Part shown: positions 1 through 35,325 of the stretch, piece by piece
Position numbering within the stretch: the stretch's first letter is position 1
How the letters are laid out: every line of letters starts with the position of its first letter
Source of the DNA: Nanobdellota archaeon
GTDB taxonomy: Archaea; Nanobdellota; Nanobdellia; SCGC-AAA011-G17; GW2011-AR18
Direction: 5' to 3'
Assembly: GCA_038046085.1 (NCBI GenBank)
Contig: JBBSWW010000020.1
Coordinates: 1 to 52,771, forward strand
Length of the DNA: 52,771 nucleotides
Made by a program: the position numbers and the translations under genes
Notes under the pieces: generated by a model
The model's input: only the letters and a program-made list of their open reading frames with translations
Told to the model about the DNA's origin: nothing
Databases searched by the model: none

Positions 1-15
1 ATATATGGAAAACTA

Positions 16-23
16 TTTATATA
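16..23 (+). promoter_or_regulatory. TATA-box-like element TTTATATA upstream of the vapB-like gene
   Basis: TTTATATA lies 30 nt upstream of the ATG at 53. The same box and spacing recur upstream of many genes in this window. Confidence 0.35.
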
Positions 24-52
24 ATAAAATTATACATAATGTTATACAAAAA

Positions 53-256
53 ATGGAAATTTTGACAAAAACAAGGAAGATAGGAGGTTCTCTAATAGTT
101 ACAATACCAAAAAATGTTGTAGAAGAACAGAACCTTAAAGAGAATCAGAGTGTTATAATAGAAATTAAAAAATGTAAAAAATCTGGTTTTGGAGTATCTA
201 AAGGTCTAGCATCATTTTCAAAAGAAGACAGGTTTAGGGGACAATTGGAAAAATGA
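53..256 (+). CDS. vapB: AbrB/SpoVT-fold antitoxin (VapB-like)
   Basis: GGSLIVTIPKNVVEEQNL matches the AbrB/MazE swapped-hairpin motif. A 4-nt ATGA overlap couples it to the downstream PIN gene. The ORF-track start at 5 is probably too long; the ATG at 53 sits behind a TATA box. Confidence 0.6.
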   Translation: MEILTKTRKIGGSLIVTIPKNVVEEQNLKENQSVIIEIKKCKKSGFGVSKGLASFSKEDRFRGQLEK

Positions 257-642
257 ATAAGTTTGTTATAGATACTTATGCGTGGATTGAATACTTTAAT
301 GGTACTATTATGGGAAATAAAGTAAAGGATATAGTGGAGAATACGGATAATAATATCTATACAAATGTTATATCAGTTGCAGAATTAGCAAGTTCATATA
401 AGAGAAATTCTTTGAGTTTTGATAATGAAAAAGAGTCATTAATATTATTGTCTAATATTTTTTTGATAGATTTTGATTTTGCTCAAGAAGCTGGGATATT
501 GCATGCTACTCTAAAAAAAGACAGAAAACATATTAGTATGGCCGACATATTCATCTTATTGACAGCAAAGAAACTAAATGCTCATGTAGTTACTGGAGAT
601 CAGGATTTCAAAGGACTTAAAGATGTAATTTTACTTAAATAA
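253..642 (+). CDS. vapC: PIN-domain ribonuclease toxin (VapC-like)
   Basis: It has the N-terminal FVIDTYAWIEY (first acidic residue) and the C-terminal VVTGDQDF motif. At 129 aa it is the right size, and it is translationally coupled to the AbrB-type antitoxin. Confidence 0.7.
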   Translation: MNKFVIDTYAWIEYFNGTIMGNKVKDIVENTDNNIYTNVISVAELASSYKRNSLSFDNEKESLILLSNIFLIDFDFAQEAGILHATLKKDRKHISMADIFILLTAKKLNAHVVTGDQDFKGLKDVILLK

Positions 643-2292: not shown

Positions 2293-5200
2293 TTGAAAAT
2301 TTCAAGGTATGAAAAGATTAAGCAGCTTAATGAGCAAATAAACTTTTTTAAGCAGGAAAAAGAGAAGGCTATTAGTTCAGGCAACAAGACTCTTGCTTTT
2401 AAGTATGACTCATTAATTAGAAAGGAAAGAATAAATATTGAAAGATTAGATTCCCATAAAAAAAATAATACAAGAGTCTATATTCTCTTGATTGTCATAT
2501 CTGCTTTTGTATTCTCTTTTTTTGTTTTTGATTATGTAAAGACCGGATTTATTGTTGGTAATATAACATCTAATAATACTATTTTAATTCCTAATGCACA
2601 GATTGGAGGCAATATCACACTTCACTTGAAACCTGGTGATTTTATAGGTAATAATATTACAATTAATGTAAGCATTACTAATACTTCTGGTGGTATAACA
2701 AATACTCTCAGCAGAGCTCTCATGACATTGCCAAGTTTTTTTAATAATGCTTCTGAATGGCATTGCAAGAATGATTCATCCCCTTCTTCTAATACTTTTG
2801 TTGATGTTGATAATGTTAGGAACTTTGAGGGTGGTTCTGGTATTGGTTTTGGATATAATGGTTCTGCTGGTTGCACTAATATATTTCAGGTTAATATAAC
2901 ATCTTTTATTCCGTCACTAAATGTTCCACTATATATTAGTGGTCAGTCATTTAATTTATCTGTGAACATTACTTATAACCTAAGCGGACAAGGTCAGGAG
3001 CAAGTCCTTTATTTTTCTAAATTATTATTTATTAATAGGCCTCCTAATATTTCTAGTGTTAACATAATTCCAGCGTCTGCATCAACACATGATTCTATAT
3101 TTGCAGATATTACTGGTCTTGGTGATCCTGATGATATGGGTTCTGTTGAAGCTAACAATGTTAGTTATAATTGGTACGTTAATAATAAGTCTCTAACACT
3201 GTTATATCTTCCATTTACTAATTATATATATTCTCATGATGGTAATACAATGTTTGATTTTAGCGGTCACAATATTAAGAATACTTTTATTCAGGGAGCA
3301 ACTTATACTAATGATAATTGTACTATTGGTGGTTGTTATAGAACAGATGTGAATCCTGCTTTTGGTATAGAAGGGGGTAGTGTTAGACCTGATCATTTTT
3401 CTATGAGGAATTTTACTGTTTTGTTTTGGTATAATCCTAGTAGTACTCCTCCTATTGCAAGTGCTGCAAGTACTAGGGATTACGTTCTTAGATTTTTTGA
3501 TCTTGATTATGGTAATAATGATAATAATGATGAATTGTTCTCTATTGGCTTTACTAATCTTAGTGTTGTTGATGCTGGTAATTTAACTGTGTATATTAAT
3601 TATGCTAATGAATCTTTTGGTAATTATTCTCAAACTTTTGCTTCTAATAATAGTAATTTTTCTGTTAAGAGGTTTATAGCTGTTACTAGAGAAGTTAGTG
3701 TTGGCAAGAATAATGTAAGTGTTTTTTTTGATGTTGATTATGTAGCAAGTCTTAGTGCAGATGGAGGTTCTTTTGGAGGTGCAATCCTTAGTACTAATGG
3801 AGAAGCTAGGCAGATAGGTAAAATGATCGGCACTCTTGATGAATTGATGATTTTCAATAGGACATTAAGTATTGAACAGATAAATTCTTTTTACAATAAT
3901 GGTGTTGGTAATTACAGTAAGATAGTTAAAAATGAAATAAGAGCTAATGAAATTTGGAATGTTTCTGTTGTTCCTATTGATAATCTTGGTCTTAATGGTT
4001 CTATGATAATATCTAATTCTGTTGCTCCTGTAACAAAACCTTCACTTATTAATCCAAGAGGTTCTAAAGTAATTATTAATCCAAGGTTTAATATGAGTTT
4101 TAATTTCAGCACTCTTGGAGCTGTAGGACTTAAGAATGCAACAGTTTATGGCAATTGGAGTAATCTAATCTTTAAGACAAATAATTCTAATATATCCTCT
4201 CTTGTTTCAAGTTCTATTTTTTCTATTGATGTAAAGGGTATTGGTAATGGTACTTGGTCTTGGAATGTTGAAATTTGTAATTCTGATCATAATTGTCAGT
4301 TTAATAACTCCAATTTGACTTTTATTGCAAATAATGCTCCTAATATTTCTAGTGTTTCAATTCTGCCATCGTCTCCAACTGTGAGTTCTGATCTTCTTGC
4401 TAATATTACAGGTCTTACTGACTATGATGGGGATATTGTAGAAGTTAATAATCTGAGTTATAATTGGTATGTTAATCATTCCTCTCTTACTTTACTGAAC
4501 CTTCCTTTTAATGATATTATCTATGGTTCTGATGATAACTTCAATAATATGACTAACAGGACTATTTTTGATTATAGTGGTAATAACTTGTATACTGAAT
4601 TGAGAGGTGTTGCTGGTGCTGTTACTGGTGCTAATGCCAAATTCCCTAATTATACAACTAGCAACTGCACTATTGGTGGTTGCTATAAGTTTGATAATCA
4701 TAGGGCAGGTACATCATCCAACCATTATTATATTAATGTTAGTGATACAGGGGATATTACTCTAAGTATGGGCAAGCATTATTCAGTATTGTTTTGGTAT
4801 CATCCCGGAGGATTCATTAATGTTCTTGGAGCACGTGTTGTCTTTTCAAAAAGTACGGGTAGTGTTTTTAGAATGAATATTGCGAGAGCTACTGGAAACG
4901 GTCCAAATCTAAATTTTAATATGATTCATGTAAATAATACTATTACCTCCAAGACTGCCAATTTTACTATCTCTAATCCTACGGCCTCTAATCCTATATT
5001 TGTCGCATTATTATATGATGGAGAGACTGGTAATACTACATTGATTATTAATGGAACTCTTGCTCTTGAGGCTGAAGAAGCAGATAAGTTGTATGGTGCT
5101 ATTAGAAATGAAACAGGTTTAGCTGATACATCATTCCGTATTGGTTCTGCAGGGTCATTAAATACTGGCATTTTTGGTACTCTTGATGAATTCCAGATCT

Positions 5201-5928
5201 ATAATAGAACATTAACTCCTGCTCAGGTTATGGCTATTTATAATAATGGTAAGGGTAATTATAGTATTATTGTTAAGGAAGAATTATTATTAGATCAGAC
5301 ATGGAATGTCTCTGTCGTTCCTATTGATAATTTAGGTTTGAATGGTTCAAGAATTGTATCAAATTCTGTTACAGTCGCCACACCATCAGCTATCTCTTGT
5401 ACTTGGAGTAATGCTGCTTTGAATGTTAGTTTTGCTGATGGCCTTTCTCAGTCGCTATCTCAGGGCAATGTTTATAATGCTTCTAAGAACTTTGAGGGTT
5501 ATATTGGTTCTTCTTCTCAAAATGTTGGGATCAATTGGTCTTTGTATAACATCACTGCAGATTCTACAAATACTGCAAATGTTAATATCACAATCAAGGG
5601 AGATCACTTATTATCAAACAATAAAGTTATTGGTATAACAAATATTACTTGGATGACTAATGAGACTAATGGTAATGGTACTGATAGTTCTGGTCTTATC
5701 AGGAATTTTACTTATCTCGGTTCTAATTCTGCTGGTCAGAATTTTGAGGGTTATAACTTAACATTGATTAATGATGGTGATCCTAAACTTGCTTTGAGGA
5801 ATAGGAACTTTTCTAATCAGTTAGCAGCTGGTTCTACTGTATGGTTCAGGTTCTGGTTAAGAGTTCCATCCGGACAGCATGCGGGGAATTATGTTGGCAA
5901 TTATACTATGGAGTGCTCGGAAGCTTAA
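2293..5928 (+). CDS. giant TM-anchored surface protein with two LamG/concanavalin-like modules and a C-terminal fibre-subunit-like domain
   Basis: The TTG start lies 9 nt after AGGTG. The N-terminus is coiled-coil followed by one TM helix (VYILLIVISAFVFSFFVF). Two ~340-aa repeat modules each end GTLDE(L/F)xI(F/Y)NRTL...YNNG, which is the LamG_3 signature. There are dozens of N-x-S/T sequons. The last ~180 aa are paralogous to 7364..8089 and 9171..9722. Confidence 0.75.
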   Translation: MKISRYEKIKQLNEQINFFKQEKEKAISSGNKTLAFKYDSLIRKERINIERLDSHKKNNTRVYILLIVISAFVFSFFVFDYVKTGFIVGNITSNNTILIPNAQIGGNITLHLKPGDFIGNNITINVSITNTSGGITNTLSRALMTLPSFFNNASEWHCKNDSSPSSNTFVDVDNVRNFEGGSGIGFGYNGSAGCTNIFQVNITSFIPSLNVPLYISGQSFNLSVNITYNLSGQGQEQVLYFSKLLFINRPPNISSVNIIPASASTHDSIFADITGLGDPDDMGSVEANNVSYNWYVNNKSLTLLYLPFTNYIYSHDGNTMFDFSGHNIKNTFIQGATYTNDNCTIGGCYRTDVNPAFGIEGGSVRPDHFSMRNFTVLFWYNPSSTPPIASAASTRDYVLRFFDLDYGNNDNNDELFSIGFTNLSVVDAGNLTVYINYANESFGNYSQTFASNNSNFSVKRFIAVTREVSVGKNNVSVFFDVDYVASLSADGGSFGGAILSTNGEARQIGKMIGTLDELMIFNRTLSIEQINSFYNNGVGNYSKIVKNEIRANEIWNVSVVPIDNLGLNGSMIISNSVAPVTKPSLINPRGSKVIINPRFNMSFNFSTLGAVGLKNATVYGNWSNLIFKTNNSNISSLVSSSIFSIDVKGIGNGTWSWNVEICNSDHNCQFNNSNLTFIANNAPNISSVSILPSSPTVSSDLLANITGLTDYDGDIVEVNNLSYNWYVNHSSLTLLNLPFNDIIYGSDDNFNNMTNRTIFDYSGNNLYTELRGVAGAVTGANAKFPNYTTSNCTIGGCYKFDNHRAGTSSNHYYINVSDTGDITLSMGKHYSVLFWYHPGGFINVLGARVVFSKSTGSVFRMNIARATGNGPNLNFNMIHVNNTITSKTANFTISNPTASNPIFVALLYDGETGNTTLIINGTLALEAEEADKLYGAIRNETGLADTSFRIGSAGSLNTGIFGTLDEFQIYNRTLTPAQVMAIYNNGKGNYSIIVKEELLLDQTWNVSVVPIDNLGLNGSRIVSNSVTVATPSAISCTWSNAALNVSFADGLSQSLSQGNVYNASKNFEGYIGSSSQNVGINWSLYNITADSTNTANVNITIKGDHLLSNNKVIGITNITWMTNETNGNGTDSSGLIRNFTYLGSNSAGQNFEGYNLTLINDGDPKLALRNRNFSNQLAAGSTVWFRFWLRVPSGQHAGNYVGNYTMECSEA

Positions 5929-5954
5929 TAAATTATAAATACTTTCTTTAATCT

Positions 5955-6197
5955 ATGAATAATAAGCAGAAATTGTTCTTGGTATTCTCTTTATTTCAAT
6001 TATCAATCATATTTTTGATAAATCCATCATTTTATACTGGAGATATAACTGGTAGTACCGATGTTAGTATCACTACTGTTTCAGTTGTGGAAAAAGATAA
6101 CAATTTAGTTATTTATCTGTCTATTTTAGTTTTAGTCTTTTTTCTAATATTAATTATTATTAGGATTTATTTCTTAATTAGAAGATTAAAAAAATAG
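5955..6197 (+). CDS. small membrane protein (N-terminal signal/TM and C-terminal TM plus a basic tail)
   Basis: The 80-aa ORF has two hydrophobic segments and ends RRLKK. I recognise no family. Confidence 0.35.
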   Translation: MNNKQKLFLVFSLFQLSIIFLINPSFYTGDITGSTDVSITTVSVVEKDNNLVIYLSILVLVFFLILIIIRIYFLIRRLKK

Positions 6198-6238
6198 TTT
6201 ATAAAAATTAAATAAAAAAGAAAAAATTAACCCTCTCT

Positions 6239-7192
6239 TTATTGAGGTGTTAATGTTACAGCCAATGTTGTTGTCTGTCCACTATTTACTGTAGCTACAG
6301 TATTATGTTCCTGATATCCTGTTTTAACTAATCTTACAGTATGTTCTCCAGGTGCCAAGTTTGTTACAAACCTTGTAGTTAATCCTTTATAGACACCATC
6401 AACATATAGCTGTGCTCCTGTTGGCGTGCTTGAGACACTCAATGTGCCTGTCTGTACCAATGTAGCATTCAATGTTGTTGTCTGTCTTGAAGTTATTAAG
6501 ACACTTTCCGTTCTTGTAACGTATCCTGATTTCTGCAATCTTACTGTATGTGTTCCCACATCAAGATAATTCACTGCTGCTGTTCCTGCTGAATTTGCAG
6601 TTGCTCTCCATACATTGTTTACATAGACATATGCTCCCGGTGTTGTTATTACATATAGATTTCCTAGATTATCTAAGTTTCTCAGGTTTGCATTGAATAC
6701 GTGTGTATCACCTGATCTAAGTGCTGGATAGGTTATATTATCTAGGTGTCCATTCATATTAAATTTTAATTTCCATGTGTATAGTGTGTTTGCTAGCGGG
6801 ACATACCAATTTATTACTATAGGTGTTACTCCTGGGCATGCTGCATTGTCTCTTATGCACACTCTTGCTCCTGTTGGTGTTGATGCAAGATCAAATACTG
6901 TATATGGTACATCAAATGCTGTTGTTTGTCCTTCAACTACATCTAAATTTCCCCACCATGTTGAACCAATGCTCTCTTGTGATGCTACCTCAACATAATG
7001 TGTTCCTGCTGATAATTCCAATGTTACTGGTGTCATTCCAGAATGTAATCCCATATACTGGCTATCAACCCATACTGTTGAATCATCTGGTGCTGTAATC
7101 TGCAATGTTCCTGTTGCAAATACGCTTCCTACTAAAAATAAAAATAAACTCAAAACTACTAAAGAAATTGTTACTTTTCTTTTATTATTCAA
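6239..7192 (-). CDS. secreted PEGA-domain repeat protein
   Basis: It has an N-terminal signal peptide and repeated PEGA-type motifs (LAPGEHTVRLVKTGY, LDVGTHTVRLQKSGY, LSAGTHYVEV). Confidence 0.75.
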   Translation of the reverse strand: MNNKRKVTISLVVLSLFLFLVGSVFATGTLQITAPDDSTVWVDSQYMGLHSGMTPVTLELSAGTHYVEVASQESIGSTWWGNLDVVEGQTTAFDVPYTVFDLASTPTGARVCIRDNAACPGVTPIVINWYVPLANTLYTWKLKFNMNGHLDNITYPALRSGDTHVFNANLRNLDNLGNLYVITTPGAYVYVNNVWRATANSAGTAAVNYLDVGTHTVRLQKSGYVTRTESVLITSRQTTTLNATLVQTGTLSVSSTPTGAQLYVDGVYKGLTTRFVTNLAPGEHTVRLVKTGYQEHNTVATVNSGQTTTLAVTLTPQ

Positions 7193-7328
7193 TTTTTATC
7201 CCTCCATTTTTTTAAAATCTGCATTAAATTTTATTCATCGTATATATAAAGTTAGTTACAAAAGCAAAATATCTTTTGCAATATATATTTTAACTGATTA
7301 TATCTTATTTTTCTAGATTGTAGATAAA

Positions 7329-7336
7329 TTTATATA
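7329..7336 (+). promoter_or_regulatory. TATA-box-like element for the 7364-10654 operon
   Basis: TTTATATA lies 28 nt upstream of the GTG start at 7364, which is consistent with a leaderless or short-leader transcript. Confidence 0.35.
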
Positions 7337-7363
7337 GCAAAGTGGAGTATTTTAATAAAACAG

Positions 7364-8089
7364 GTGTTTCGGTTGATTGAAAAAAAAGGTTACGTTTCCA
7401 TTGTTCTTATACTTGCAATATTTATCACTCTAGGTTTTATTCTTGGTTATACATTATTTAAAGGCAATTCTAATATGATAACAGGTGCAGCTACAAGTAC
7501 TGTTGGTAATTTGACAGCTAATGTTGTTACTGCTGTTGCTTGCACATGGAGTAATGCTGCTTTGAATGTTAGTTTTGGTGAGGGTATTGCTCAGTCTTTA
7601 TCTCAGGGTTCTATATATAATGCTTCTAAGAATTATGAAGGATATATAGGTGCAGGAGCTCAGAATGCTGGCATCAACTGGACTTTGTATAATGTTACTG
7701 CAGATGTGACAAATACTGATAGTATAAATATCTCAATAAAAGGTTCTCATCTTTTAATTGGAATTAATACTTTAGGTATTAGCAATGTTACTTGGATGAC
7801 TAATGAGACGAATGGAAATGCTACTGATGCTGCTGGGAATACTCATAACTTTACTTATCTTGGATCATTTAATTCTACTATTGGACCTGGTCAGAATTTT
7901 GAAGGTTTTAATCTTACTTTGATTAATGATGGTGATCCTAAATTAGCTTTAAGAAACAGGAATTTTTCCAATCAGTTAGCAGCTGGTTCTACTGTTTGGT
8001 TCAGGTTCTGGCTTCATGTTCCAAGAGGACAGATTGGTGGAAGATACGTGGGAAATTATACGCAGACTTGTACTGCAGCAACAACTTAA
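7364..8089 (+). CDS. secreted fibre-subunit-like protein (paralogue of the adhesin C-terminal domain)
   Basis: The GTG start gives an N-terminus MFRLIEKKG/YVSIVLILAIFITLGF, which could be a class III (prepilin-like) or an ordinary signal. The domain ACTWSNAALNVSFG...WFRFWLHVPRGQIGGRYVGNYTQTC is about three-quarters identical by eye to residues encoded by 5389..5928. Confidence 0.6.
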   Translation: MFRLIEKKGYVSIVLILAIFITLGFILGYTLFKGNSNMITGAATSTVGNLTANVVTAVACTWSNAALNVSFGEGIAQSLSQGSIYNASKNYEGYIGAGAQNAGINWTLYNVTADVTNTDSINISIKGSHLLIGINTLGISNVTWMTNETNGNATDAAGNTHNFTYLGSFNSTIGPGQNFEGFNLTLINDGDPKLALRNRNFSNQLAAGSTVWFRFWLHVPRGQIGGRYVGNYTQTCTAATT

Positions 8090-8092
8090 AAG

Positions 8093-8668
8093 ATGGTGAT
8101 GAATAAAATATTATTTATTGTAGGGATGTTCTTAGTATGCATCTCACTTGTTAGTGCAAGCATCGGTGTAGGTATTTCTCCATCTAAAGTATTGGATCAG
8201 GTTGTCAGTAAACAGGAAAAGAATTATACTTTCACAATTTATAATACTGGTGATATTCCTGTTCTGATAAAGATGAGTGCATCTGATGAACTTGAAGGTA
8301 AAGTTAGATTCTATCCTGAAGAATTGTCTTTGCTTCCTGAGCCTGAACCTCATAGGCTTCCTCCTGTGAATGGTAAGGATATAATTGTTACAGTGAAAGC
8401 TCCTGTATCTCATGATTTGAAAAAGATTACAGGGCATATTGTTGCTACTGCTGGTGCTGCTCCTGGTTCTAGTTTTGGTGGTTCTGGTGCTGTTGCTTCA
8501 AGGTTTGAATTGATGATAGGCCCTCCTAAATATTTCTGGGATTATATGACAGACAAACAGATATTATTAGCAAATCTCGTTATATTATTGATCATTATAA
8601 TATTCATTGCGAGATGGATAATGAAAAAGAAGGGCATACACTTTGCTCTAGTTAAAGAAGAAGAATGA
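8093..8668 (+). CDS. membrane-anchored Ig-like accessory protein (signal peptide, beta-rich domain, C-terminal TM)
   Basis: The motif is SIGVGISPSKV...YTFTIYNTGDIPV...LLPEPEPHRLPPVNGK...GAVAS, followed by a C-terminal TM helix and a basic tail. It is a paralogue of 8665..9174. Confidence 0.55.
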   Translation: MVMNKILFIVGMFLVCISLVSASIGVGISPSKVLDQVVSKQEKNYTFTIYNTGDIPVLIKMSASDELEGKVRFYPEELSLLPEPEPHRLPPVNGKDIIVTVKAPVSHDLKKITGHIVATAGAAPGSSFGGSGAVASRFELMIGPPKYFWDYMTDKQILLANLVILLIIIIFIARWIMKKKGIHFALVKEEE

Positions 8669-9174
8669 AAAAAATAATACTTATATTTATTCTGTTATTG
8701 AACATCTCTATAGTCTCTGCAAGTGTAGGTATTGGTGTCTCTCCAGCTAAGCTTTCTGATACTATATTTACTGGCGATGTTAAGGAATATGAATACATTG
8801 TATATAATACTGGTGATATTAATGTTACAGCAAATATAGAAGTTGAGGGAGATTTGAGTGATTATGCTGATATATCTGATAAAAGTTTATTTTTGCTTCC
8901 TGAGCCTGAACCTCATAGGCTTCCTCCTGTTAATGGTAAGATTACAAAGATAAAGATTCATGCTCCTTTATTATTTAAAGAAAAAAATTACACTTCAAAG
9001 GTTGTTGTCTCTGTCAATCCAGGTTTTGGCGGTTTGATTACAACTGGTGCTGTTGCATCTAATATATTTATCACTGTTAAACCTAAATCTAGTTTTTATT
9101 TTAAGAATATTCTTTTAGCAATTATCATTATAATAATATTTTATCTTCTTCTTAAGAAAAGGAGTTCCAGATGA
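8665..9174 (+). CDS. membrane-anchored Ig-like accessory protein (paralogue of 8093..8668)
   Basis: The motif is SVGIGVSPAKL...YEYIVYNTGDINV...LLPEPEPHRLPPVNGK...GAVAS, followed by a C-terminal TM helix. ATGA overlaps join it to both neighbours. Confidence 0.55.
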   Translation: MKKIILIFILLLNISIVSASVGIGVSPAKLSDTIFTGDVKEYEYIVYNTGDINVTANIEVEGDLSDYADISDKSLFLLPEPEPHRLPPVNGKITKIKIHAPLLFKEKNYTSKVVVSVNPGFGGLITTGAVASNIFITVKPKSSFYFKNILLAIIIIIIFYLLLKKRSSR

Positions 9175-9722
9175 AGACATATTTGATGATCTCATTATTA
9201 GTATTGATGTTTATTTCATTGTTATTTTTTAATAAGTTCACAGGTTATGATTCTGCTCAGTTATCTAACCTTACTGCCAATATTGTTACAGCTATTGCTT
9301 GTACTTTTAGCAATGATGCTTTGAATGTTAGTTTTGGTGATGCTATAACATCGGGTTCTAATTATAATGCTTCTAAAAACTTTATGGACTTATATGGTAA
9401 TACTTGGTATAATATTACAATAGATATTACAAGCAGTAGTAATGTTAATGTCTCGATCAAAGGAACCGATTTTGTTTCAGGTAGTAATTCTGTTGGTGTT
9501 GGTAACGTATCATGGAGTAGTAATATAACATCTCCTAATGGAACTAATATGATCTTTCCAGGGGAAGCTAATATAAGTATATTATATAATTTAAATAATC
9601 TTATAGCATCAAATGCCCAATCAGGAAGTGTTGCCTATTATAGAATATGGCTTAGACTCCCTTCATTGACATCTGGTGGGCAATATTCAGGAACTTACAC
9701 ATTGAGGTGTACTGAATTATGA
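9171..9722 (+). CDS. secreted fibre-subunit-like protein (divergent third copy of the domain)
   Basis: After a signal peptide it reads NLTANIVTAIACTFSNDALNVSFGD...YYRIWLRLPSLTSGGQYSGTYTLRC. It shows the same start and end motifs and the same Cys pair as 7364..8089. Confidence 0.55.
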   Translation: MKTYLMISLLVLMFISLLFFNKFTGYDSAQLSNLTANIVTAIACTFSNDALNVSFGDAITSGSNYNASKNFMDLYGNTWYNITIDITSSSNVNVSIKGTDFVSGSNSVGVGNVSWSSNITSPNGTNMIFPGEANISILYNLNNLIASNAQSGSVAYYRIWLRLPSLTSGGQYSGTYTLRCTEL

Positions 9723-10654
9723 AAAAAATAATTATTTTATTATTAATCTTTATTATAATTGTCCCTGTTATTATAGGTGTTGATGCAGAAAGCAGTGGAA
9801 ATATTACATTCGGTGTTGTATCATCTACTACTTCAACTTCGTCTACTTCAGGTAGATCATCTGGCGGTGGTTCTGCTACCTCAAGTGAATCTTCTGACTT
9901 TGATGTTTATCCTGAGATTATAACTCTTGATTACTTCTCTCCTTCATCAAATAATATTTCATTTACAATAAAGAATAATGGTAATGCAAATATTCCAGTA
10001 TCTGTTGAGGTTTTAGGTATTGAAGAATTCTATTACTCATTAAATAGTAGTTTTTCAATAAGTCATTCATCATCTAAGAATCTCTCAATATCTTTTAATC
10101 CTATGAAAGGAACATCTAGTGGTGTATATGTTGGCAAGATAATTGTTAAGTCTGGTGAGAAGTTCAAGACTATTCTTCTTGTTATAAATTTCAGAGAAAG
10201 TTCTTTGCTTGATATTAATGTTAAGGTATTGCCTGATTATAAGTCTGTATATTCTGGCGATGATATCATCTCATCAGTTTTGTTACATAATTCTGGTACA
10301 AATTCAGGTCTTATTCATGCTGCTATTAATTTTACTGTTATTGATTTTGATAGGAATGTTCTTGTTGAATATTCAAAAGAAGAGGTTGATCTTGGTAAGG
10401 AATTATTTTTCACAAGGAAATTCTTTATACCTTCACACGCAGGTAATGGTAGATATATTATTGTAGGTGCTTTGTCTTATGGTAATTCTTCTGTATATTC
10501 TTATGATTATTTTGATGCTGTTAAAAAACCTGTTATAGAAATAGTGTCTGATTATAGTGTATTGCTTATTGTCATAGCTATAATGCTTGCCATAATTATT
10601 TATGAATTTATTTCACACAGGAATTATTCAAGAAATCTTTCTAAATTTAAATAA
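9719..10654 (+). CDS. membrane-anchored surface protein with a Ser/Thr-rich linker and two Ig-like domains
   Basis: It has a signal peptide, an SSTTSTSSTSGRSSGGGSATSSESS linker, an FTIKNNGNANIPVSVEV-type strand motif and a C-terminal TM helix. An ATGA overlap joins it to the upstream gene. Confidence 0.5.
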   Translation: MKKIIILLLIFIIIVPVIIGVDAESSGNITFGVVSSTTSTSSTSGRSSGGGSATSSESSDFDVYPEIITLDYFSPSSNNISFTIKNNGNANIPVSVEVLGIEEFYYSLNSSFSISHSSSKNLSISFNPMKGTSSGVYVGKIIVKSGEKFKTILLVINFRESSLLDINVKVLPDYKSVYSGDDIISSVLLHNSGTNSGLIHAAINFTVIDFDRNVLVEYSKEEVDLGKELFFTRKFFIPSHAGNGRYIIVGALSYGNSSVYSYDYFDAVKKPVIEIVSDYSVLLIVIAIMLAIIIYEFISHRNYSRNLSKFK

Positions 10655-10764: not shown

Positions 10765-11638
10765 TTAACCATAAGTTTTTGGATGGAATTTTAGAGATTT
10801 TATTCTTCCATTTTCTAATATTAATAATGTATTGACCTGAGAGCCAAATCCTGCATTTATTACTGTTGTTTTTCCCAGCATTTCTTTATTGAAATGTTCA
10901 TGCATATGTCCACCTATACAGACTAACGGTTGATACTGTTCTATCATGTCTCTTGCTAATACTGAACCATAATGATATCCATATCTTGGTGATTCTTTAT
11001 TTGTTATCATATCTAATGAAGTATTATATGGGACATTGTGCGACATAAATATTACGGGTTTTCTTGCTCTATCAAATAATCTTGAAACATTTCTAGTTAA
11101 TTTATCATATCCTGCCTTAGCCTTTTCTAATTCTTTTTCTGTCATACTATCAATTACATCTTGATGTTGTGGATATTCTGGCCCTGATGTTCTCCCATGT
11201 CCAATAAATTCATAATTTCCAATATCAACTCTTCTCATATCAACATCTACAACATTTTTCAATCCTTTTTTTAATTTTGAATAATGATCTTGATTCAAGA
11301 AATCCCATTTTTCATTTCTTGATATCCATTCCCAATTTCCTGGTGTTATGTAAACTGGAACTCCAAATGAATCTAAAAATTCTAAAATTTCTCTTCCATC
11401 AGAAAGTGATTTCAAAACCATTTGTTTTGCTTTTTTTCTTTCCTACAATATCATACCATTGTAGTTTTGATTTTGGATCTTTAATTGATGCTTGTAATGA
11501 TTGGAATTTGTAAGTTCTTGTTTCATCACTGCAGAAATCTCCTGGAGCTATTATTGCATCAAACTCTTTGAAGTGTACTACAGGTTTGTTTCCGTGTAAG
11601 TCGCCTATAATCAAAAATTTCATATCATCTAATGCCAT
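10765..11638 (-). pseudogene. metallophosphoesterase split by a frameshift at an A7/T7 homopolymer
   Basis: ORF 11399..11638 carries the GDLHG and GD motifs. ORF 10765..11421 carries GNWEW (GNHE-like), SHNVP and GGHMHEH. Removing one base from the T7 run at 11431-11437 fuses the two frames. Confidence 0.7.
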
Positions 11639-12230: not shown

Positions 12231-13262
12231 CTATTTTTCACCTAATTTTTTATCTATTATATTAAACAGTTCTTTATTTCCAGGTTTATAACTTTTTTTC
12301 TTGTAATTATCTAGATTATTTAAAAATCTTCTTAGATTTTCTTCTGTTAATTCTTTATAATTCTCGCCATAATTATTCTCTTTTACATATAAAGCATTTA
12401 GGTATTGTTCAAATTGTTTTTTTATTGGTATGACTAATATTGGTTTTTCTAAATATATTGCTTCACTTATTAAATTAATTCCTCCAGTAGTTATTACTGC
12501 TTTACATTCTTTTATATCTCTGTCAAAGTTTTCTTCTGAGAATTTCTTAAATGTTATATTTTTATCTTTTAATTCATCATTGAATCCATATACTATAAAC
12601 TCTTCTCCAAAATTTTTCAATTCTTCTAATATTTTTTTATTTTTTGTTATTGATAAATATATTAATACACTATTCCTTGTTTTTTTCTTGTTTTCTATTA
12701 AGCTTTTTCTTATTACTGGATCTATTCTGATTGCTTTAGATTTATTTTTTAATTTTTCTCCAGGAAATGTTAGTACTATATTCTCATCAGCTTTATTATA
12801 TTCTACTGCAAATTTTTTTGTTATATAATACTCAATTAATCTAATATTATCTATAGCATAGTCTCCTTCTGTTATATAATGTTCATTATCAAATGCTATG
12901 CTTCTTATTCCTTTTCTCATACTATAATTTAATGTTCCTGGTTCAAAATCTGATATAATTATTTCAGGATTAAATTTATCTATTTTTTTTATTGTTTCAT
13001 TATTTATATAATCTCTTTTTAAAAATATCTTATAATTTATAATAAAAGTTTTTATTACTGATACTGAATTATTATTGTTTAATGCAATTTGTAGTCCTTT
13101 AGCATAATATACATTTTCAAAATCTTTTTTTAAATAATCATAAGCACTCAATCCTCCAATTATGAACAATTCATGTTTCTTCTTCAATAAATATTCAATA
13201 AGTATCTTGCTTCTTGAGTAATGCCCAGCTCCTACTCCACAAACTCCATATAATATTCTCAT
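12231..13262 (-). CDS. glycosyltransferase (MJ1255/TIGR00661-like, GT-B fold)
   Basis: It has the N-terminal MRILYGVCGVGAGHYSRSKIL motif and a C-terminal TTGGINLISEA motif. It lies immediately upstream of carS with no gap. Confidence 0.65.
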   Translation of the reverse strand: MRILYGVCGVGAGHYSRSKILIEYLLKKKHELFIIGGLSAYDYLKKDFENVYYAKGLQIALNNNNSVSVIKTFIINYKIFLKRDYINNETIKKIDKFNPEIIISDFEPGTLNYSMRKGIRSIAFDNEHYITEGDYAIDNIRLIEYYITKKFAVEYNKADENIVLTFPGEKLKNKSKAIRIDPVIRKSLIENKKKTRNSVLIYLSITKNKKILEELKNFGEEFIVYGFNDELKDKNITFKKFSEENFDRDIKECKAVITTGGINLISEAIYLEKPILVIPIKKQFEQYLNALYVKENNYGENYKELTEENLRRFLNNLDNYKKKSYKPGNKELFNIIDKKLGEK

Positions 13263-14209
13263 TATCTATTCCTCTTCATCTCTTTTTTTAATATTTTATA
13301 TTCTTTTATTATAAGTTCTAGTGTGGGTCTTATATTGCCTTTATTTTGGTATTCTTGCAAAGTTCTATAGTACTCGCTTCTGTTGTTTAGTCCTATATTT
13401 ACAGGAGGGAATTTATGTTTTATTAATATATTATTCAATAACAATCTTCCCACTCTGCCATTACCGTCTTGGAACGGATGTATATTCTCAAATTGGTTAT
13501 GTACTACTGCGGCCAATAATATTGGATGATACTTGTTTTTGTGTTTGTTGTACCATTCTACAAGTTCATTTAATGATGTATTAATTCTATTTGAAGGTGC
13601 TCCTTTATGTATTACATTCCCATAACCATCTCTTATTACAACTTCAACATCTTTAGGTCTTAATTTTCCTGAAAAACTTTTGCTGTTTTTGAATACTATA
13701 TCGTGCAATTTTTTTATTAATTCTATTGATATATGTTCTTTGCACTCTCTGATATATTTTATTGCTTCAGCAACTCCATATGTCTCTGCTATATCCATTT
13801 TATTGATTTCATTTGGCCACTTATTTTCTTCGAGTATGTCTTCAACTTCTTTTTGATTTACTTTAGATCCTTCTATTGCATTAGTATTATATGTAAATAT
13901 CTCAGTAAATCTTTTCCAGTCATCTTCAGATAAATGGTCTATACTGATTATTTCATTAGGTTCTATTGATTCTAAGAATTTTAGTTCTTTGTCTGATAAT
14001 TCGTGTTTTAATGGATCTTTTGTTTTTTTATAAAATTCAATTTGATCTCTTATTAATACTTCAGCTCTTTTTCTTAAGTTTTCAAGTTCTGCTTCTGTTA
14101 AATCGCTTCCTAAATATCTTGCTATTTTTTTTACTTTTTTTCCCTCTCTAAAAGAGTGGTTTAAATAATATTTTTTCTTCTTTCCTTGTTTTTTTATTTC
14201 TATATTCAT
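13262..14209 (-). CDS. Fic-domain protein (class II, with an internal inhibitory motif)
   Basis: It has the Fic motif HPFQDGNGRVGR and an upstream TNAIEG that matches the (S/T)xxxE(G/N) inhibitory helix. Its stop overlaps the glycosyltransferase start (TAATG). Confidence 0.85.
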   Translation of the reverse strand: MNIEIKKQGKKKKYYLNHSFREGKKVKKIARYLGSDLTEAELENLRKRAEVLIRDQIEFYKKTKDPLKHELSDKELKFLESIEPNEIISIDHLSEDDWKRFTEIFTYNTNAIEGSKVNQKEVEDILEENKWPNEINKMDIAETYGVAEAIKYIRECKEHISIELIKKLHDIVFKNSKSFSGKLRPKDVEVVIRDGYGNVIHKGAPSNRINTSLNELVEWYNKHKNKYHPILLAAVVHNQFENIHPFQDGNGRVGRLLLNNILIKHKFPPVNIGLNNRSEYYRTLQEYQNKGNIRPTLELIIKEYKILKKEMKRNR

Positions 14210-16655: not shown

Positions 16656-17267
16656 ATGCCTAAACTTTCTAAAGAGGAGATGGATCAGATTCAGGCTTAT
16701 CTTCAGACTTTGCCTGAGAATGAACGTGAAGAAAAACTTAACCAGATCATTGCTACTTATGAGAAATCTCCAGCTCAATGTCCTTTCTGTCTTATGTCTG
16801 AGGGTAAGATTCAAACAACTAAAGTCTATGATGATCCTAATTATATTGCAGTTCTTGAGATTAATCCTGCTAATCCTGGACACACTATTTTATTCCCTAA
16901 ATCTCATATCTCTAGTATTACTAATTTATCTCATGTTGATACTGAAAATCTTTTTAAGATCTCTAAGATATTGTCAACTTCTATTCTCTCATTCTCTGAT
17001 GGTGTCTCTTTGTATGTTGAGGATGGCAAGATCTTAGGTAAGAGATTTGATCATTTTGTCATTAATATTATTCCAAGATTAAAAGATGATGATGTTCATC
17101 TAGTTACTAAGCCTAAACCTTCTACTCCTGATTCTCTTAAAGAGATGCGTGAAAAAATATTAGCTAATCTTCCTAAGGAGAAAAAAGAAGAGCCTAAAAA
17201 AGATGTTGTTGATGATACTCCTTTATTTTCTAAAGAATTTTCTAGGATATCTAAAAGAAGGCCCTGA
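16656..17267 (+). CDS. HIT-superfamily protein with a degenerate histidine triad
   Basis: CPFC...VYDDPNYIAVLEINPANPGHTILFPKSH is typical of HIT proteins. The triad position reads DHFVINIIPR instead of HxHxHxx. Confidence 0.65.
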   Translation: MPKLSKEEMDQIQAYLQTLPENEREEKLNQIIATYEKSPAQCPFCLMSEGKIQTTKVYDDPNYIAVLEINPANPGHTILFPKSHISSITNLSHVDTENLFKISKILSTSILSFSDGVSLYVEDGKILGKRFDHFVINIIPRLKDDDVHLVTKPKPSTPDSLKEMREKILANLPKEKKEEPKKDVVDDTPLFSKEFSRISKRRP

Positions 17268-18276
17268 ATATTGCAAATATGCTTCCGTAGATTATTGTGA
17301 ATAAGAATCCTATTAGGAATCCCGGGACAAATGGTAATCCATCTTTTATTATCACATATTTTATCTTATTATCCCTTAGTCTTTTTATATCATTCTTTGT
17401 TAATCCATAATTCACACTTTTTTCTGTTCTTTTAAGTATGAAACTTAATAGTTGTTTTTTGAATGGTAAATATTTTATTCTTTTAAAGAATTTATTTATT
17501 TTTTTCTTATTATCACTTATTTGATATTCATTCTTATTTTTTATTGAACTGCATATTATCTTGTTTCCTTTTTTTACATCTTCTGCTAACCAGTCTCCTT
17601 CAGTTAATCTGTCTATATTCATTTTTTTGTACATTGAAGATTTCTCTACTGCTTTGAAGAATATGTAAGTTGATGGTAATAATGATAATGTTATTCCTAG
17701 CATTAGTATTAAGAACTTGAATTCATTAGTTATTAGCAAACTTGTTATTATTACTATTATCCCTATGATTATTAAATAAATAAAGGTTTTATGTGCATTT
17801 TCTTTTATGTTTTTAATAAACTCTTTTTTGTTTTTTATTGCTAAATGAGTGCTATAGATTATTCCCCATAATGCTCCAGCAACTAGTATGTTTATTATCA
17901 ATACTATTATGAATGGCAGATCAAATACGGGAGTCAAGTACTTTATTCCTCCATAGTTTCCGAACATTGCTCCCATTCCCATCAATAATTTTGCATCTCC
18001 TCCACCCCATTGTTTTGCATAATACATTACATTAGCAATAATGAAGAATATTCCCAAGCCAATTAATCCATATAATAAATAGCTTCTATCGTTTGTAATT
18101 ATGCTGTAAATAGCTCTTGATCCTAATCCAATAGCAATAAGGCTATAGTTAAGCCAGTTAGGGACTTCTCTTGTTTTTATATCAGTTATTGATGCAAATA
18201 TTAGATATATTAAAGCAACAACTATTAGAAAATACCATATCATATTATTATCTGGAAATGTTAAATTTATAAACAT
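17251..18276 (-). CDS. A24-family prepilin/preflagellin peptidase (PibD/FlaK-like)
   Basis: It is a polytopic membrane protein with the first catalytic Asp in ASITDIKTREVPN and the second in GGGDAKLLMGMG (GxGDxK). Confidence 0.8.
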   Translation of the reverse strand: MFINLTFPDNNMIWYFLIVVALIYLIFASITDIKTREVPNWLNYSLIAIGLGSRAIYSIITNDRSYLLYGLIGLGIFFIIANVMYYAKQWGGGDAKLLMGMGAMFGNYGGIKYLTPVFDLPFIIVLIINILVAGALWGIIYSTHLAIKNKKEFIKNIKENAHKTFIYLIIIGIIVIITSLLITNEFKFLILMLGITLSLLPSTYIFFKAVEKSSMYKKMNIDRLTEGDWLAEDVKKGNKIICSSIKNKNEYQISDNKKKINKFFKRIKYLPFKKQLLSFILKRTEKSVNYGLTKNDIKRLRDNKIKYVIIKDGLPFVPGFLIGFLFTIIYGSIFAIFRAFF

Positions 18277-19446: not shown

Positions 19447-20628
19447 ATGTTTAAATCTAAAAGAGCTGCTGGTGATGGTGGTAATGTTGCTATTCTTATA
19501 ATTCTTATTGCTTTGTTCATGGTTTTATATTTATTATTTGTCCCTCCTGAAGTAAGAGATGATTTATTAGGAGAAAGTAGTTCTAATTCTGGTTCATCAA
19601 GTTCAAGTTCTGAGAGAGCAGAATTATTGGCAGAATCTCCTGGAATTTTATATCCTACTAAGACACAGATTGGTGTTCATGATATTGCTAACATGAATCT
19701 TTTTCTTAAGACTCAGCCAAAAGTTACTGATTTAGCTCAAAATTTAATTATTAAAAATTCTCTTTTCTCAGGATCATCTCCAAGGATAAGGTTCTCAGTT
19801 TCTTCATTATCAGATACAATCAAGGCTAATATTTTCTTCAATGTTGCAAGGTTTGATGGTGAATTAAGGATTAAAGTTAATGGCAACACAATATACACTG
19901 AAGAGATTACATCTTCTGGTATTAAGATTGTTGAGATTCCTAAATCTTATCTTCAGAATAATAATGAAATAGAGTTTAGTGTATCTTCAGGTTTCTTCTC
20001 ATCTAATGTTTATGCTCTTGAAAATATTGGTGTTAAACAGGAGTTCCAGTTCAAGAATTCAGAAGAATTGAGGACTTTTGTTTTATCAGAATCTGAAAGG
20101 AAGAATTTAGAATCAGCAACTATAAGTTACAGACAATATTGTAACGAACCTTTAGAGAATAGTCTGACAAGGTTTGAGATTTTCTTGAATCATAAATCTG
20201 CTTTTGAAAAAAAGGTTTCTTGTTTAAATATTGATGAATCTGCTAATATTGATCCAAAATTATTTGTTGAAGGTTCTAATACATTATCATTTAATGTTGA
20301 TGATGGTAGTTTTATTTTTTCAGATATTGAGTTGAGGACTAAATCTAAAGAAGCTGATTTCCCTTCTTACAGTTTCACTGTCTCTCCAGAGACTTATGAT
20401 AAGATAAAGAATAATGAATTAAAACTGAATTTGCAGTTCTTATTGGAGAATAATCAGTTCAACAAGAATGCTAGATTAGAGATTAATAATAATGAATATC
20501 TTATGAGGACTGATACTAATGAGTTCACTCTTGACTTAAAAGAATATATTATTCAGGGAACTAATTTCTTGAAGATAATTCCTTCTAACACTTTCAATCT
20601 TGTTGCTCTGAAAGTTGTTTTGGAGTAA
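19447..20628 (+). CDS. N-terminally anchored or secreted protein with a poly-Ser linker, function unknown
   Basis: The N-terminus is MFKSKRAAGDGGNVAILIILIALFMVLYLLFV (a TM or class III-like signal), followed by SSSNSGSSSSSS and a beta-rich region. Confidence 0.5.
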   Translation: MFKSKRAAGDGGNVAILIILIALFMVLYLLFVPPEVRDDLLGESSSNSGSSSSSSERAELLAESPGILYPTKTQIGVHDIANMNLFLKTQPKVTDLAQNLIIKNSLFSGSSPRIRFSVSSLSDTIKANIFFNVARFDGELRIKVNGNTIYTEEITSSGIKIVEIPKSYLQNNNEIEFSVSSGFFSSNVYALENIGVKQEFQFKNSEELRTFVLSESERKNLESATISYRQYCNEPLENSLTRFEIFLNHKSAFEKKVSCLNIDESANIDPKLFVEGSNTLSFNVDDGSFIFSDIELRTKSKEADFPSYSFTVSPETYDKIKNNELKLNLQFLLENNQFNKNARLEINNNEYLMRTDTNEFTLDLKEYIIQGTNFLKIIPSNTFNLVALKVVLE

Positions 20629-20631
20629 ATT

Positions 20632-21978: not shown

Positions 21979-22163
21979 CTGCCGCGCAAAATGAATAACA
22001 TGTTTTTGAGAATTGAATTTTATATTCGCTGTTAATAAGTGCGCAAAAACAAAGATTAAAATATGCGCACAACGAATTCCTAAAAAATCTTGAAAAGATA
22101 ATAAATAAATAATGAACTTGATTTAAGAAAAGTTTTTATAACACTTATATAATATATTCAATA

Positions 22164-23078
22164 ATGAAATTTAAAAATTTGGTGATTATATTAGTTTTAT
22201 CAGTTGTTTTGATATCATGTGCTGGTTCAGGAAGTTCAGGTGGTTCTGCTCGTGGTGTTAATATTAAGTTTGTTGAATTGCCTCCTAAAGAATTAGCTGA
22301 GGGTGAGGAATTCTCTACAACTATTCAAATATCTAATGCTGTTGTTAATGCTAATGGTCTTAATGGTGAATTATGTCTGAGAGATACTATCACTGATACT
22401 TATGGTGGTGTCTCTGATAATTCTTGTTTTCCTGTAAATCTTCCTTCAGCTTCACAGAGCGATAAAAGTATTAGTCCTTCTATTGATGAATATACTTTCA
22501 CTTCAAAGCCTTACTCTAATCTTGATCCTAGTATTACTAATGATGTTTCTATTATTGCAGATTTTAGATATTCAGTTGATACTACTGCTGGTGGTGTTGT
22601 ATGTGTAAAGAAACCAGGAGCTAACTCTCCTATTATTCCTTCTAATTGTGGTACTGAACAATCATTATCTGTACAACAACCTGATATGCCTCTTAGAGTT
22701 TCTAAGATATTAGTCAGACCAACAAGGATTAATGCAGGTTCTGTTAAACTAAATACTGAGATTACTTTATCTAAGTCTATTGCAGGTGAATTATTATCAA
22801 AACAAGATTCTTTTGAAAGATCTAGCATGGCATCTGCTGATATTGATTTCAATGTAGAGATTAATGGTTATTCAGCATCATGTGGTGGTATTAGTTCTGG
22901 CGGCAAATTAAATATTAGGACTAATGAAAACGAAAAGGTTATTAAGTGTTCAACTCTAGTAACTTTAAACCAAGATTGGCTTGATGTTCCTGTAAAAATA
23001 AGTATGGGATACGGTTATAGGCAGTCTGTTGTTGGTGAAAAAATAAAGCTCATAAGTAACGAGGTGTTAAGCGCATGA
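22164..23078 (+). CDS. putative lipoprotein, Cys-rich, unknown family
   Basis: It has a signal peptide with a lipobox-like LISC followed by a Gly/Ser linker. ADFRYSVDTTAGGVVCVKK...SNCG...MPLRVSKILVRP aligns with the protein at 23075. Confidence 0.5.
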   Translation: MKFKNLVIILVLSVVLISCAGSGSSGGSARGVNIKFVELPPKELAEGEEFSTTIQISNAVVNANGLNGELCLRDTITDTYGGVSDNSCFPVNLPSASQSDKSISPSIDEYTFTSKPYSNLDPSITNDVSIIADFRYSVDTTAGGVVCVKKPGANSPIIPSNCGTEQSLSVQQPDMPLRVSKILVRPTRINAGSVKLNTEITLSKSIAGELLSKQDSFERSSMASADIDFNVEINGYSASCGGISSGGKLNIRTNENEKVIKCSTLVTLNQDWLDVPVKISMGYGYRQSVVGEKIKLISNEVLSA

Positions 23079-31561: not shown

Positions 31562-31587
31562 AAGTTTAACTGAGAATTTTTAACGAT

Positions 31588-31638
31588 ACTTTCTAGTTTT
31601 TCTGTAAATCTTTCAATATTTTATTATAAAGACTTTTT
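31588..31638. repeat. 51-nt direct repeat, copy 2
   Basis: ACTTTCTAGTTTTTCTGTAAATCTTTCAATATTTTATTATAAAGACTTTTT lies between the ORF6N start and the stop of the TM-protein gene. Confidence 0.85.
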
Positions 31639-31674
31639 AATCTTTAATTATTTATATAATACCAAAGTAAACTT

Positions 31675-35324: not shown

Positions 35325-35325
35325 T

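Follow-up and report, generated by a model that had tools for sequence, protein, structure and literature searches.

Gene layout of the locus

DPANN archaea are mostly uncultured and reliant on attachment to host cells, through a machinery that is largely unknown. Analysing a contig of 52,771 nucleotides (nt) from a Nanobdellota archaeon (GenBank assembly GCA_038046085.1, contig JBBSWW010000020.1; hereafter "the window", taken at its full length), we characterized the locus at positions 2293-10654, where the gene of a giant adhesin and a five-gene operon, with two further genes between them, encode a candidate adhesive surface fibre. The window is AT-rich (G+C ~30%) and archaeal in gene content, with RadA, eIF2-alpha, GINS, CDP-archaeol synthase and an archaeal prepilin peptidase as encoded markers, and its closest public relatives are contigs of archaeon GW2011_AR18 and of Candidatus Woesearchaeota / Nanoarchaeia metagenome-assembled genomes (MAGs). 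A first-pass annotation, made from the sequence alone, had proposed an undescribed surface-fibre or adhesin system at this place. All the open reading frames (ORFs) that it had listed for 2293-10654 were re-found, and the junctions of the operon were read directly as TAA-AAG-ATG (a 3-nt gap) followed by three ATGA overlaps. The PEGA protein and the small membrane ORF said to separate the giant gene from the operon were both present, the PEGA gene lying on the minus strand (which that annotation had left unstated), divergent from the operon. The locus comprises the following features, in which aa stands for amino acids, Ig for immunoglobulin and E for E-value:

2293..5928, plus strand: giant adhesin, 1211 aa, TTG start, with Laminin_G_3
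5389..5925, plus strand: copy of the shared domain at the C-terminus of the giant adhesin (residues ~1033-1211, first Cys at 1036), without a free GNLTANVVTAVA extension
5955..6197, plus strand: small bitopic protein, 80 aa
6239..7192, minus strand: secreted PEGA / CarboxypepD_reg-repeat protein, 317 aa (PEGA E 1.3e-29)
7364..8089, plus strand: subunit A, 241 aa; hydrophobic segment, TG, GNLTANVVTAVA, shared beta-sandwich domain (predicted) with a Cys pair
8093..8668, plus strand: PapD-like protein 1, 191 aa; signal peptide, one predicted PapD/MSP-type Ig domain, C-terminal transmembrane helix, basic tail
8665..9174, plus strand: PapD-like protein 2, 169 aa; paralogue of 8093..8668 with identical architecture
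9171..9722, plus strand: subunit B, 183 aa; signal/hydrophobic segment, FTG, SNLTANIVTAIA, shorter version of the shared domain
9719..10654, plus strand: strand-linker-anchor protein, 311 aa; last gene of the operon

The three traits previously ascribed to the giant protein, namely a membrane anchor, LamG repeats and an excess of N-glycosylation sequons, were all recovered. Laminin_G_3 matched two stretches (E 1.4e-14, 54.9 bits against a Pfam cutoff of 27.6), a hydrophobic helix spans residues 62-82 (nt 2476-2538) and is followed by KTG, and 70 N-x-S/T sequons were counted, against 28.4 +/- 4.6 in composition-preserving shuffles. From its N-terminus, the protein consists of a ~60-aa segment, the helix, an [Ig-like + LamG] unit present twice and, at the C-terminus, the shared domain; both the N-terminal region and the C-terminal domain are retained in orthologues of 1226 and 1813 aa. 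Among related loci (L numbers) and proteins (P numbers), a conserved Lys/Glu-rich segment of 60-110 aa precedes the hydrophobic helix of the giant adhesins (2293-2475 in the window; L011, L012, P0017), and this N-terminal segment is probably cytoplasmic. Beside a related cassette, a 1000-aa surface protein (L018, 10064-13066) opens with KRGGKVHGPYYYESYRDESGKIKKRYLG before its membrane helix, a cytoplasmic N-terminal motif unlike the one carried by the giant of the window.

Next to the giant gene, the 80-aa product of 5955..6197 displays an N-terminal hydrophobic segment, ITG, a beta-prone stretch (STDVSITTVSVV), a transmembrane helix at the C-terminus and a basic tail. Its orthologue also adjoins the giant gene in GW2011_AR18 (phmmer 1e-23), and we speculate that it could be a minimal strand-plus-anchor partner of the giant protein.

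The shared domain, its extension and the membrane-anchored partners

The annotation had recognized one ~180-aa domain used three times, at the tail of the giant protein and in the products of 7364..8089 and 9171..9722, and BLASTP confirmed this homology: residues 1026-1211 of the giant are 71% identical to 7364..8089 (E 7e-90), and 9171..9722 is 37% identical to it (E 1e-37). The opening and closing motifs quoted for the domain were found in the alignment, and its Cys pair (C23/C199) proved invariant in 9 family members. Subunit A carries 14 sequons where 5.0 +/- 1.9 are expected, and sequon density amounts to 5-6 per 100 aa in the giant and the subunits (z about 9 and 4.7). The AlphaFold2 model of subunit A (predicted local distance difference test, pLDDT, 66.6; predicted template-modelling score, pTM, 0.63) combines a beta-sandwich core predicted with confidence and long loops of low confidence. 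Most of the 50 Foldseek matches listed for this model are chaperone-usher pilins (TM-score 0.33-0.48), the best being CsuA/B (E 0.03, probability 0.87), together with the Csu pilus, FimA, PapA, CfaB, Caf1, FimI and PapH; the Sulfolobus thread subunit (7pnb, E 1.3) is also among the matches listed. At the level of predicted structures, the resemblance of the shared domain to pilins is suggestive but weak. An SCPU/DUF4402 lead was dropped, DUF4402 matching 7 of 43 family members over partial regions with E of at least 0.065, and SCPU none.

In front of the domain, both stand-alone copies of the window carry (G/S)NLTAN(V/I)VTA(V/I)A directly before the first Cys, that is GNLTANVVTAVA at nt 7505-7540 in subunit A and SNLTANIVTAIA at nt 9264-9299 in subunit B, and the fused copy has SVTVATPSAIS there. 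The earlier statement that the fused copy lacks this N-terminal segment is correct within the window but not universal, since the fused relatives P0031 and P0039 retain partly similar sequence; in other fused copies, the end of the preceding module occupies the position of the extension. About 30 free subunits share one layout, in which a hydrophobic segment is followed by a nearly invariant TG, some six residues further on by the extension, and then by the Cys. The extension follows the consensus GN[LF][TS][AV]x[VI]x[TS]x[VIL][AS]-Cys, its hydrophobic residues alternating at -10, -8, -6 and -2, and position -4 being taken by a small one. It is more conserved than the domain behind it, at 2.82 bits per column versus 2.36 for the domain middle. 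Paralogues A and B are identical at 6/12 to 9/12 of its positions (50-75%), against 41-46% for the domains, and the pair of the window shows 9/12 identical positions for a domain identity of 45%.

In the AlphaFold2 monomer of subunit A, the first 22 residues, including the extension, were not built as a strand, and an extension left idle in the monomer model fits an inter-molecular role. Such a conserved, beta-patterned segment is what a donor strand or a partner-binding peptide would look like, a fit that falls short of proof. A hidden Markov model (HMM) of the extension, run over all ORFs of the window, recovered the two subunits only, chance ORFs outscoring the N-termini of 9719..10654 and of the giant. 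A start motif common to 9719..10654, the giant and the subunit extension was consequently rejected for want of HMM support, and was kept as an architectural argument only.

The (I/L/V/F)TG motif that follows the long N-terminal hydrophobic segment is nearly invariant in every fibre-type protein (4.1-4.3 bits), a set comprising the subunits, the giant adhesins, the LamG proteins, 5955..6197 and the anchor proteins of the distant loci L013-L020; the PapD-like proteins have instead ordinary signal peptides ending in VSA, with S as the next residue. TG may be a dedicated processing or sorting site, and we infer that cleavage would take place after it; no candidate protease for this site was identified.

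These N-termini also bear on the idea that the small proteins could be type IV pilins of the archaeal kind and substrates of the prepilin peptidase whose gene lies 7 kb downstream (Peptidase_A24 / Arc_PepC, 17251..18276, minus strand): in subunit A and its close relatives, a starting ...KKG precedes about 23 hydrophobic residues in the manner of a class III signal. However, the [KR]G motif is confined to the close clade of subunit A and missing from subunit B and most family members, no secretion ATPase or platform protein is encoded in the window or in any related cassette, and the partner that is conserved is of the PapD-like family. The peptidase, moreover, is syntenic with the operon in close relatives only (L004, L005), with no pilin gene nearby. 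With the class III motif unconserved and the ATPase and platform genes absent, we rejected the type IV pilus reading, which appears very improbable.

The conserved partner was better resolved by modelling. The ectodomain of 8093..8668 was predicted by AlphaFold2 as a nine-strand sandwich (pLDDT 84.3, pTM 0.74) that gave 105 Foldseek matches against the PDB at E<=1e-3. Chaperone-usher chaperones make up about two-thirds of the 50 best (E 6e-6 to 2e-4, TM-score 0.52-0.63), among them Caf1M, FimC, SfaE, DraB, FaeE, SafB and CsuC (E 9e-6 to 8e-5, probability 1.00), and other members of the PapD-like superfamily (OCRL ASH, HYDIN, MSP, VAP) are also listed. Sub-threshold Pfam matches to PapD-clan families agree with this result. 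The predicted PapD-like fold is solid, and it suggests a chaperone function for these proteins. No Pfam PapD_N or PapD_C match was obtained for them, and the NCBIfam fimbrial chaperone model reached E 0.058, far below its cutoff. The paralogue 8665..9174 is 44% identical to 8093..8668, with GVGISPxK, YNTGD, PEPEPHRLPPVNGK and FGG..GAVAS as common motifs. Sequons are not enriched in either (1 in 8093..8668 and 3 in the other; 0.5-1.8 per 100 aa, for 0.6 per 100 in cytoplasmic proteins). A high sequon load in the adhesin and subunits and a low one in the PapD-like proteins would be expected if the former are exposed parts and the latter assembly factors.

The same domain could however belong to a membrane-anchored glycoprotein coat, in which it would be a complete beta-sandwich (e.g. 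a GH123-type carbohydrate-binding module) borne in the small proteins on uncleaved N-terminal helices, the Ig-like proteins being held by C-terminal ones, and lectin-type adhesins would be attached to this envelope layer. The GH123 N-terminal domain is indeed the best match of the shared domain both in Foldseek and in local sequence, the Cys pair connects its first and last strands, the N-terminal hydrophobic segments are long, and the heavy sequon load is reminiscent of S-layer glycoproteins. Yet the GH123 matches are themselves weak (E 6e-3, TM-score 0.34 in Foldseek; Glyco_hydro_123_N_2 from Pfam in one subunit-family member, E 0.0045), an invariant TG and a conserved beta-patterned extension behind the helix are hard to square with a mere stalk, and the pairing and co-duplication of the PapD-like genes speak for a specific step of subunit handling. 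We consider such a coat unlikely.

The last product of the operon, 9719..10654, had been grouped with the two PapD-like proteins as a trio of Ig-like transmembrane proteins sharing a GVGISPxK...YNTGD motif. This grouping is valid for 8093..8668 and 8665..9174, but the literal motif is absent from 9719..10654, a distinct two-module protein only 19% identical to that pair. Its N-terminal part consists of a signal peptide, a beta-prone GNITFGVVSS (nt 9797-9826) and a ~25-aa Ser/Thr/Gly linker, and the remainder of two Ig-like modules, a transmembrane helix at the C-terminus and a basic tail, with weak Pfam matches to the PapD clan (Cep192_D4 0.0015, CARDB 0.034). Homologues of 312-479 aa, encoded by the last cassette gene in L001, L004 and L017-L020, keep the N-terminal strand, a Gly-rich linker and the C-terminal transmembrane helix, and reduced strand-linker-transmembrane proteins take the place of the anchor gene in L013 and L015. 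The middle part of these homologues varies, being absent or made of two Ig-like modules or of an extra ~170-aa domain. The idea of a "donor-only" anchor is drawn from this architecture, because the extension HMM misses these N-termini. In GW2011_AR18 (L007, 3919-4741), the orthologue is split into ORFs of 70 and 211 aa, by a frameshift or an assembly error.

Conservation of the cassette and surroundings of the locus

A word-indexed search with subunit A retrieved 8 proteins, and an exhaustive profile search over 1.84 billion representatives 65 at E<=1e-3, including 35 at E<=1e-10. Across this family, the shared domain lies at the C-terminus of large proteins (1606, 1323, 1324, 1222 and 730 aa) whose N-terminal parts are mutually unrelated (beta-helix-like, BNR-like repeats, Fn3-like modules, beta-propeller), and domain-ending giants elsewhere usually adjoin a free subunit gene. 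The profile of the PapD-like ectodomain recovered 89 proteins of 120-215 aa, nearly all of 167-215 aa, the three shorter ones being probably fragments. All named sources of both families are DPANN archaea, and those of the PapD-like family are Woese-, Pace- or Nanoarchaeota without exception. No Pfam or NCBIfam model exists for either family, and sequence matches in the PDB are likewise absent, in line with the earlier remark that these proteins could not be assigned to a named family.

The core of the cassette, formed by a subunit, a PapD-like transmembrane protein and a strand-linker-transmembrane protein in this order, is found again in about 11 loci from Woese-, Pace-, Nano- and Micrarchaeota. 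Woesearchaeota MAGs and one Nanoarchaeia MAG preserve the whole five-gene operon; the latter has its 1813-aa giant on a separate contig and lacks the PEGA and small transmembrane genes. In Pacearchaeota (L017), a beta-propeller protein of 1222 aa with the shared domain at its end stands ahead of the core, and L018, L019 and L020 show the same gene order. A micrarchaeotal locus (L014) encodes, in succession, a domain-terminated protein of 730 aa, a subunit and a PapD-like protein; L016 represents a distant subfamily. In 9 of 10 loci, subunit and PapD-like genes stand 1:1, and the clade of the window has duplicates of both. The PEGA gene lies upstream in L004, L006, L007 and L011 and is absent from L001 and the distant loci; because it is linked in close relatives only, it is not a core part. 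Because the gene set recurs across distant DPANN lineages, the domain copies and the Ig-like transmembrane proteins do co-occur in related genomes, as an archaeal system of the kind first proposed would have it.

The same architecture is found in bacterial WxL/WxLIP clusters, and a non-polymeric surface display of this type is the other way of reading the cassette: the shared domain would be a docking module whose sandwich is completed by a strand of the Ig-like transmembrane partners, which would hold giant and small proteins on the cell, without any fibre. WxL clusters likewise combine a domain-only small protein with a large protein that carries this domain at its C-terminus, behind binding domains, and with an Ig-like partner whose C-terminus forms a transmembrane helix; AlphaFold2 predicts that a strand of this partner completes the WxL sandwich (PMC10599100). 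The shared domain ends many unrelated giant proteins, a PapD-like partner is always adjacent, and two members of the subunit family have faint WxLIP_PGBD matches (E 0.085 and 1.3; none on the transmembrane partners). This reading leaves unexplained, however, both the strongly conserved extension of free subunits, which is mostly missing from fused copies, and the third class of proteins, with a strand, a linker and a transmembrane helix. WxL clusters are bacterial (Firmicutes), peptidoglycan-associated and not thought to polymerise, whereas the locus has neither the WxL motif pair nor any Pfam match to WxL, DUF916 or DUF3324 on the corresponding proteins. To our knowledge, these archaea have no peptidoglycan to bind, which also counts against a WxL-like display. 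We hold this display to be rather unlikely; were it true, the locus would be an archaeal counterpart of WxL-type adhesin docking.

Around the locus, no tRNA and no Rfam family at gathering score were detected in the window. Upstream, a MazE/AbrB-PIN toxin-antitoxin pair occupies the window start (5-642, plus strand). Downstream of the operon, a calcineurin-like phosphoesterase gene (10765-11638, minus strand) is apparently split, 11399..11638 (N-terminal GDLHG) overlapping 10765..11421 (remainder), and may represent a frameshift or a pseudogene; a Fic-domain protein follows (13262-14209, minus strand). Four successive plus-strand ORFs at 19447-24016 (393, 448, 304 and 313 aa) have hydrophobic or lipobox-like N-termini (…LISCAGSGSS, …LITACTTGTKK), no Pfam match and zero sequons, in sharp contrast to the sequon-rich fibre proteins, and look like a further cluster of uncharacterised secreted or membrane proteins. 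The defence content is dense for a small genome: type I restriction-modification genes at 30653-41198 on the minus strand (HsdM 32398.., HsdS 35326.., HsdR 38475..) are interleaved with ORF6N, KilA-N and YhcG/DUF1016 nuclease genes, and a separate Eco47II endonuclease and C5-methylase pair lies within 49983-51647.

A candidate strand-exchange fibre and its known analogues

From these features, a Sec-exported, usher-less adhesive surface fibre of Woesearchaeota-type DPANN archaea, built by beta-strand complementation, stands about an even chance of being what the locus encodes. The two heavily N-glycosylated subunits (7364.. and 9171..) would be Ig-like beta-sandwiches, each placed behind its 12-residue extension of alternating hydrophobic residues, and the membrane-anchored PapD-like proteins (8093.. 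and 8665..) would hold them as they emerge from the membrane. Assembly would then proceed by donor-strand exchange, the extension of each incoming subunit displacing the holder from the subunit added before. The giant LamG adhesin would act as acceptor only, at the distal end, because its copy of the domain is without a free extension, and the product of 9719.., with an N-terminal strand on a flexible linker and a C-terminal membrane helix, would terminate and anchor the fibre. The homology of the three domain copies, the predicted PapD-like fold, the conserved gene set and the uneven sequon load are what the analysis establishes; chaperone function, strand exchange, the polarity of the fibre and its anchoring are proposals.

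Several results weigh against this fibre. The subunit model is of medium quality, none of its Foldseek matches against the PDB reaches E 1e-3, and its top matches are the GH123 N-terminal domains mentioned above, which are not pilins. Sequence searches of the PDB, whether by single proteins or by profiles of the two families, returned nothing meaningful, Pfam and NCBIfam searches of the subunits gave no Fimbrial, SCPU, WxL or DUF1102 match, and hhalign comparisons were not significant either for the subunit against fourteen E. coli K-12 pilins (probability <1%) or for the PapD-like family against six E. coli K-12 chaperones (probability 0.7%, E 0.078), although the latter alignment, non-significant as it is, is in register and places the invariant Lys10 of the family on the invariant Arg of the chaperones. 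The PapD-like proteins have one domain instead of two, and their fold also occurs in the non-chaperones MSP, ASH and VAP. The Cys pair bridges the beginning of the first strand and the end of the last one, as is typical also of closed, self-sufficient modules, and the subunits have long N-terminal hydrophobic segments (17-25 residues), which might remain as anchors. Some fused copies (P0031, P0039) keep extension-like sequence, the extension HMM gives no support to the likeness of the N-termini of 9719.. and of the giant, and the conserved, probably cytoplasmic N-terminus of the giant is unusual for a protein expected at a fibre tip. The fibre interpretation of the first-pass annotation is partly supported, by the predicted PapD-like fold of the helper, weak pilin-type matches and a conserved gene set, but not by sequence homology to chaperones or pilins. 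A fibre nevertheless remains the most likely product of the locus, ahead of a related adhesin-display complex.

The closest analogue, on our best reading, would be the Pam pilus of the Candidate Phyla Radiation (CPR), followed by haloarchaeal tafi (Tat-fimbriae), Csu pili and WxL/WxLIP clusters. The Pam pilus is composed of PamA/B/E pilins, a PamT tip, PamC/PamD chaperones and a PamR anchor, the latter proposed as fibre terminator and anchor (bioRxiv 10.64898/2026.03.03.709456). Like the locus studied here, it belongs to single-membrane cells without usher or trans-envelope machine, has all its parts Sec-exported and encoded in one operon, and includes two FimC/PapD-like proteins with a C-terminal transmembrane helix, a layout shared by 8093.. 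and 8665... It also has an acceptor-only tip component, as proposed here for the giant, and the layout of PamR, with an extra N-terminal strand, two Ig/FnIII domains and a transmembrane helix at the C-terminus, resembles that of 9719.., whose N-terminal strand is a candidate one. The two systems differ in that Pam pilins are two-domain proteins donating an inter-domain linker strand, whereas the subunits here have one domain and a candidate N-terminal extension; in that PamC/D have two domains and the helpers here one; and in that the Pam tip is a small pilin, whereas the tip here would be a LamG adhesin of >1000 aa. They are further set apart by the description of Pam itself, its pilins being reported from CPR only, whereas the named members of the PapD-like family are DPANN.

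Comparisons with Csu pili and WxL complexes, both drawn in the first-pass annotation, turned out to be apt. Chaperone-usher systems, including Csu, share with the locus the PapD-like fold of the helper (at the fold level only), a weakly pilin-like subunit fold with CsuA/B as best pilin match, an N-terminal extension of alternating hydrophobic residues directly before a Cys-containing first strand, and, as in FimH, an adhesin made of binding domains and a C-terminal pilin-type domain without extension. Archaea of this kind are single-membraned, and no usher-like gene was found in the window or in any related cassette. Unlike chaperone-usher systems, the one described here involves no outer membrane, a single-domain and membrane-anchored helper, and heavily N-glycosylated subunits with a differently placed Cys pair, in addition to the missing Pfam (Fimbrial, SCPU, PapD_N/C) and hhalign support.

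Among archaeal filaments, tafi are predicted donor-strand fibres with a LamG tip (TafC), two small related subunits and a terminator with a C-terminal transmembrane helix (TafF), traits with candidate counterparts here. Their genes are TafC, TafE, TafA, TafF, TafD and TafG, and taf-like DUF1102 clusters have also been described (PMC11821415). The cassette, however, has neither a TafD-type signal peptidase nor a TafG/DUF5305 gene, and no protein of the locus gave a peptidase S24/S26, DUF5305 or DUF1102 match or a Tat motif; the NCBIfam TafC match in the LamG region of the giant is faint (E 1.9e-4, 20.7 bits against a cutoff of 410). Tafi, in addition, have no PapD-like component, and their tip protein is modelled as a strand donor. 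Membership in tafi was rejected because the TafD and TafG features are absent. Sulfolobus threads (Saci_0406) and bundling pili (AbpA/TasA-like) are also archaeal and glycosylated, with Ig-like subunits and N-terminal donor strands, but they show no sequence match or convincing fold match to the proteins of the locus and are without a giant adhesin carrying the subunit domain. We know of no chaperone-like partner for archaeal threads, bundling pili or cannulae. The polymerization of cannulae is called chaperone-free in the very title of one paper.

Our literature survey found no DPANN or Woesearchaeota version of such a system. The cassette is DPANN-wide and previously undescribed, made of new families in a new lineage, and its proposed assembly principle has precedents in Pam and tafi. 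More broadly and more tentatively, DPANN archaea may attach to hosts or surfaces by fibres that donor-strand exchange assembles with the help of PapD-like chaperones fixed in the membrane, with a donor-only anchor and interchangeable giant adhesins mounted on a shared acceptor domain. If so, Archaea would have their first chaperone-dependent strand-exchange pilus, to be set beside the CPR Pam pilus, and the two radiations of ultra-small symbionts would have either converged on such a system or shared it in the distant past. It would also be relevant to the working, or the origin, of chaperone-usher-type assembly in cells that have no outer membrane, would give two unannotated protein families a testable role, and would put a name to a conserved cassette for a surface fibre with swappable giant adhesins in archaea that depend on attachment to their hosts.

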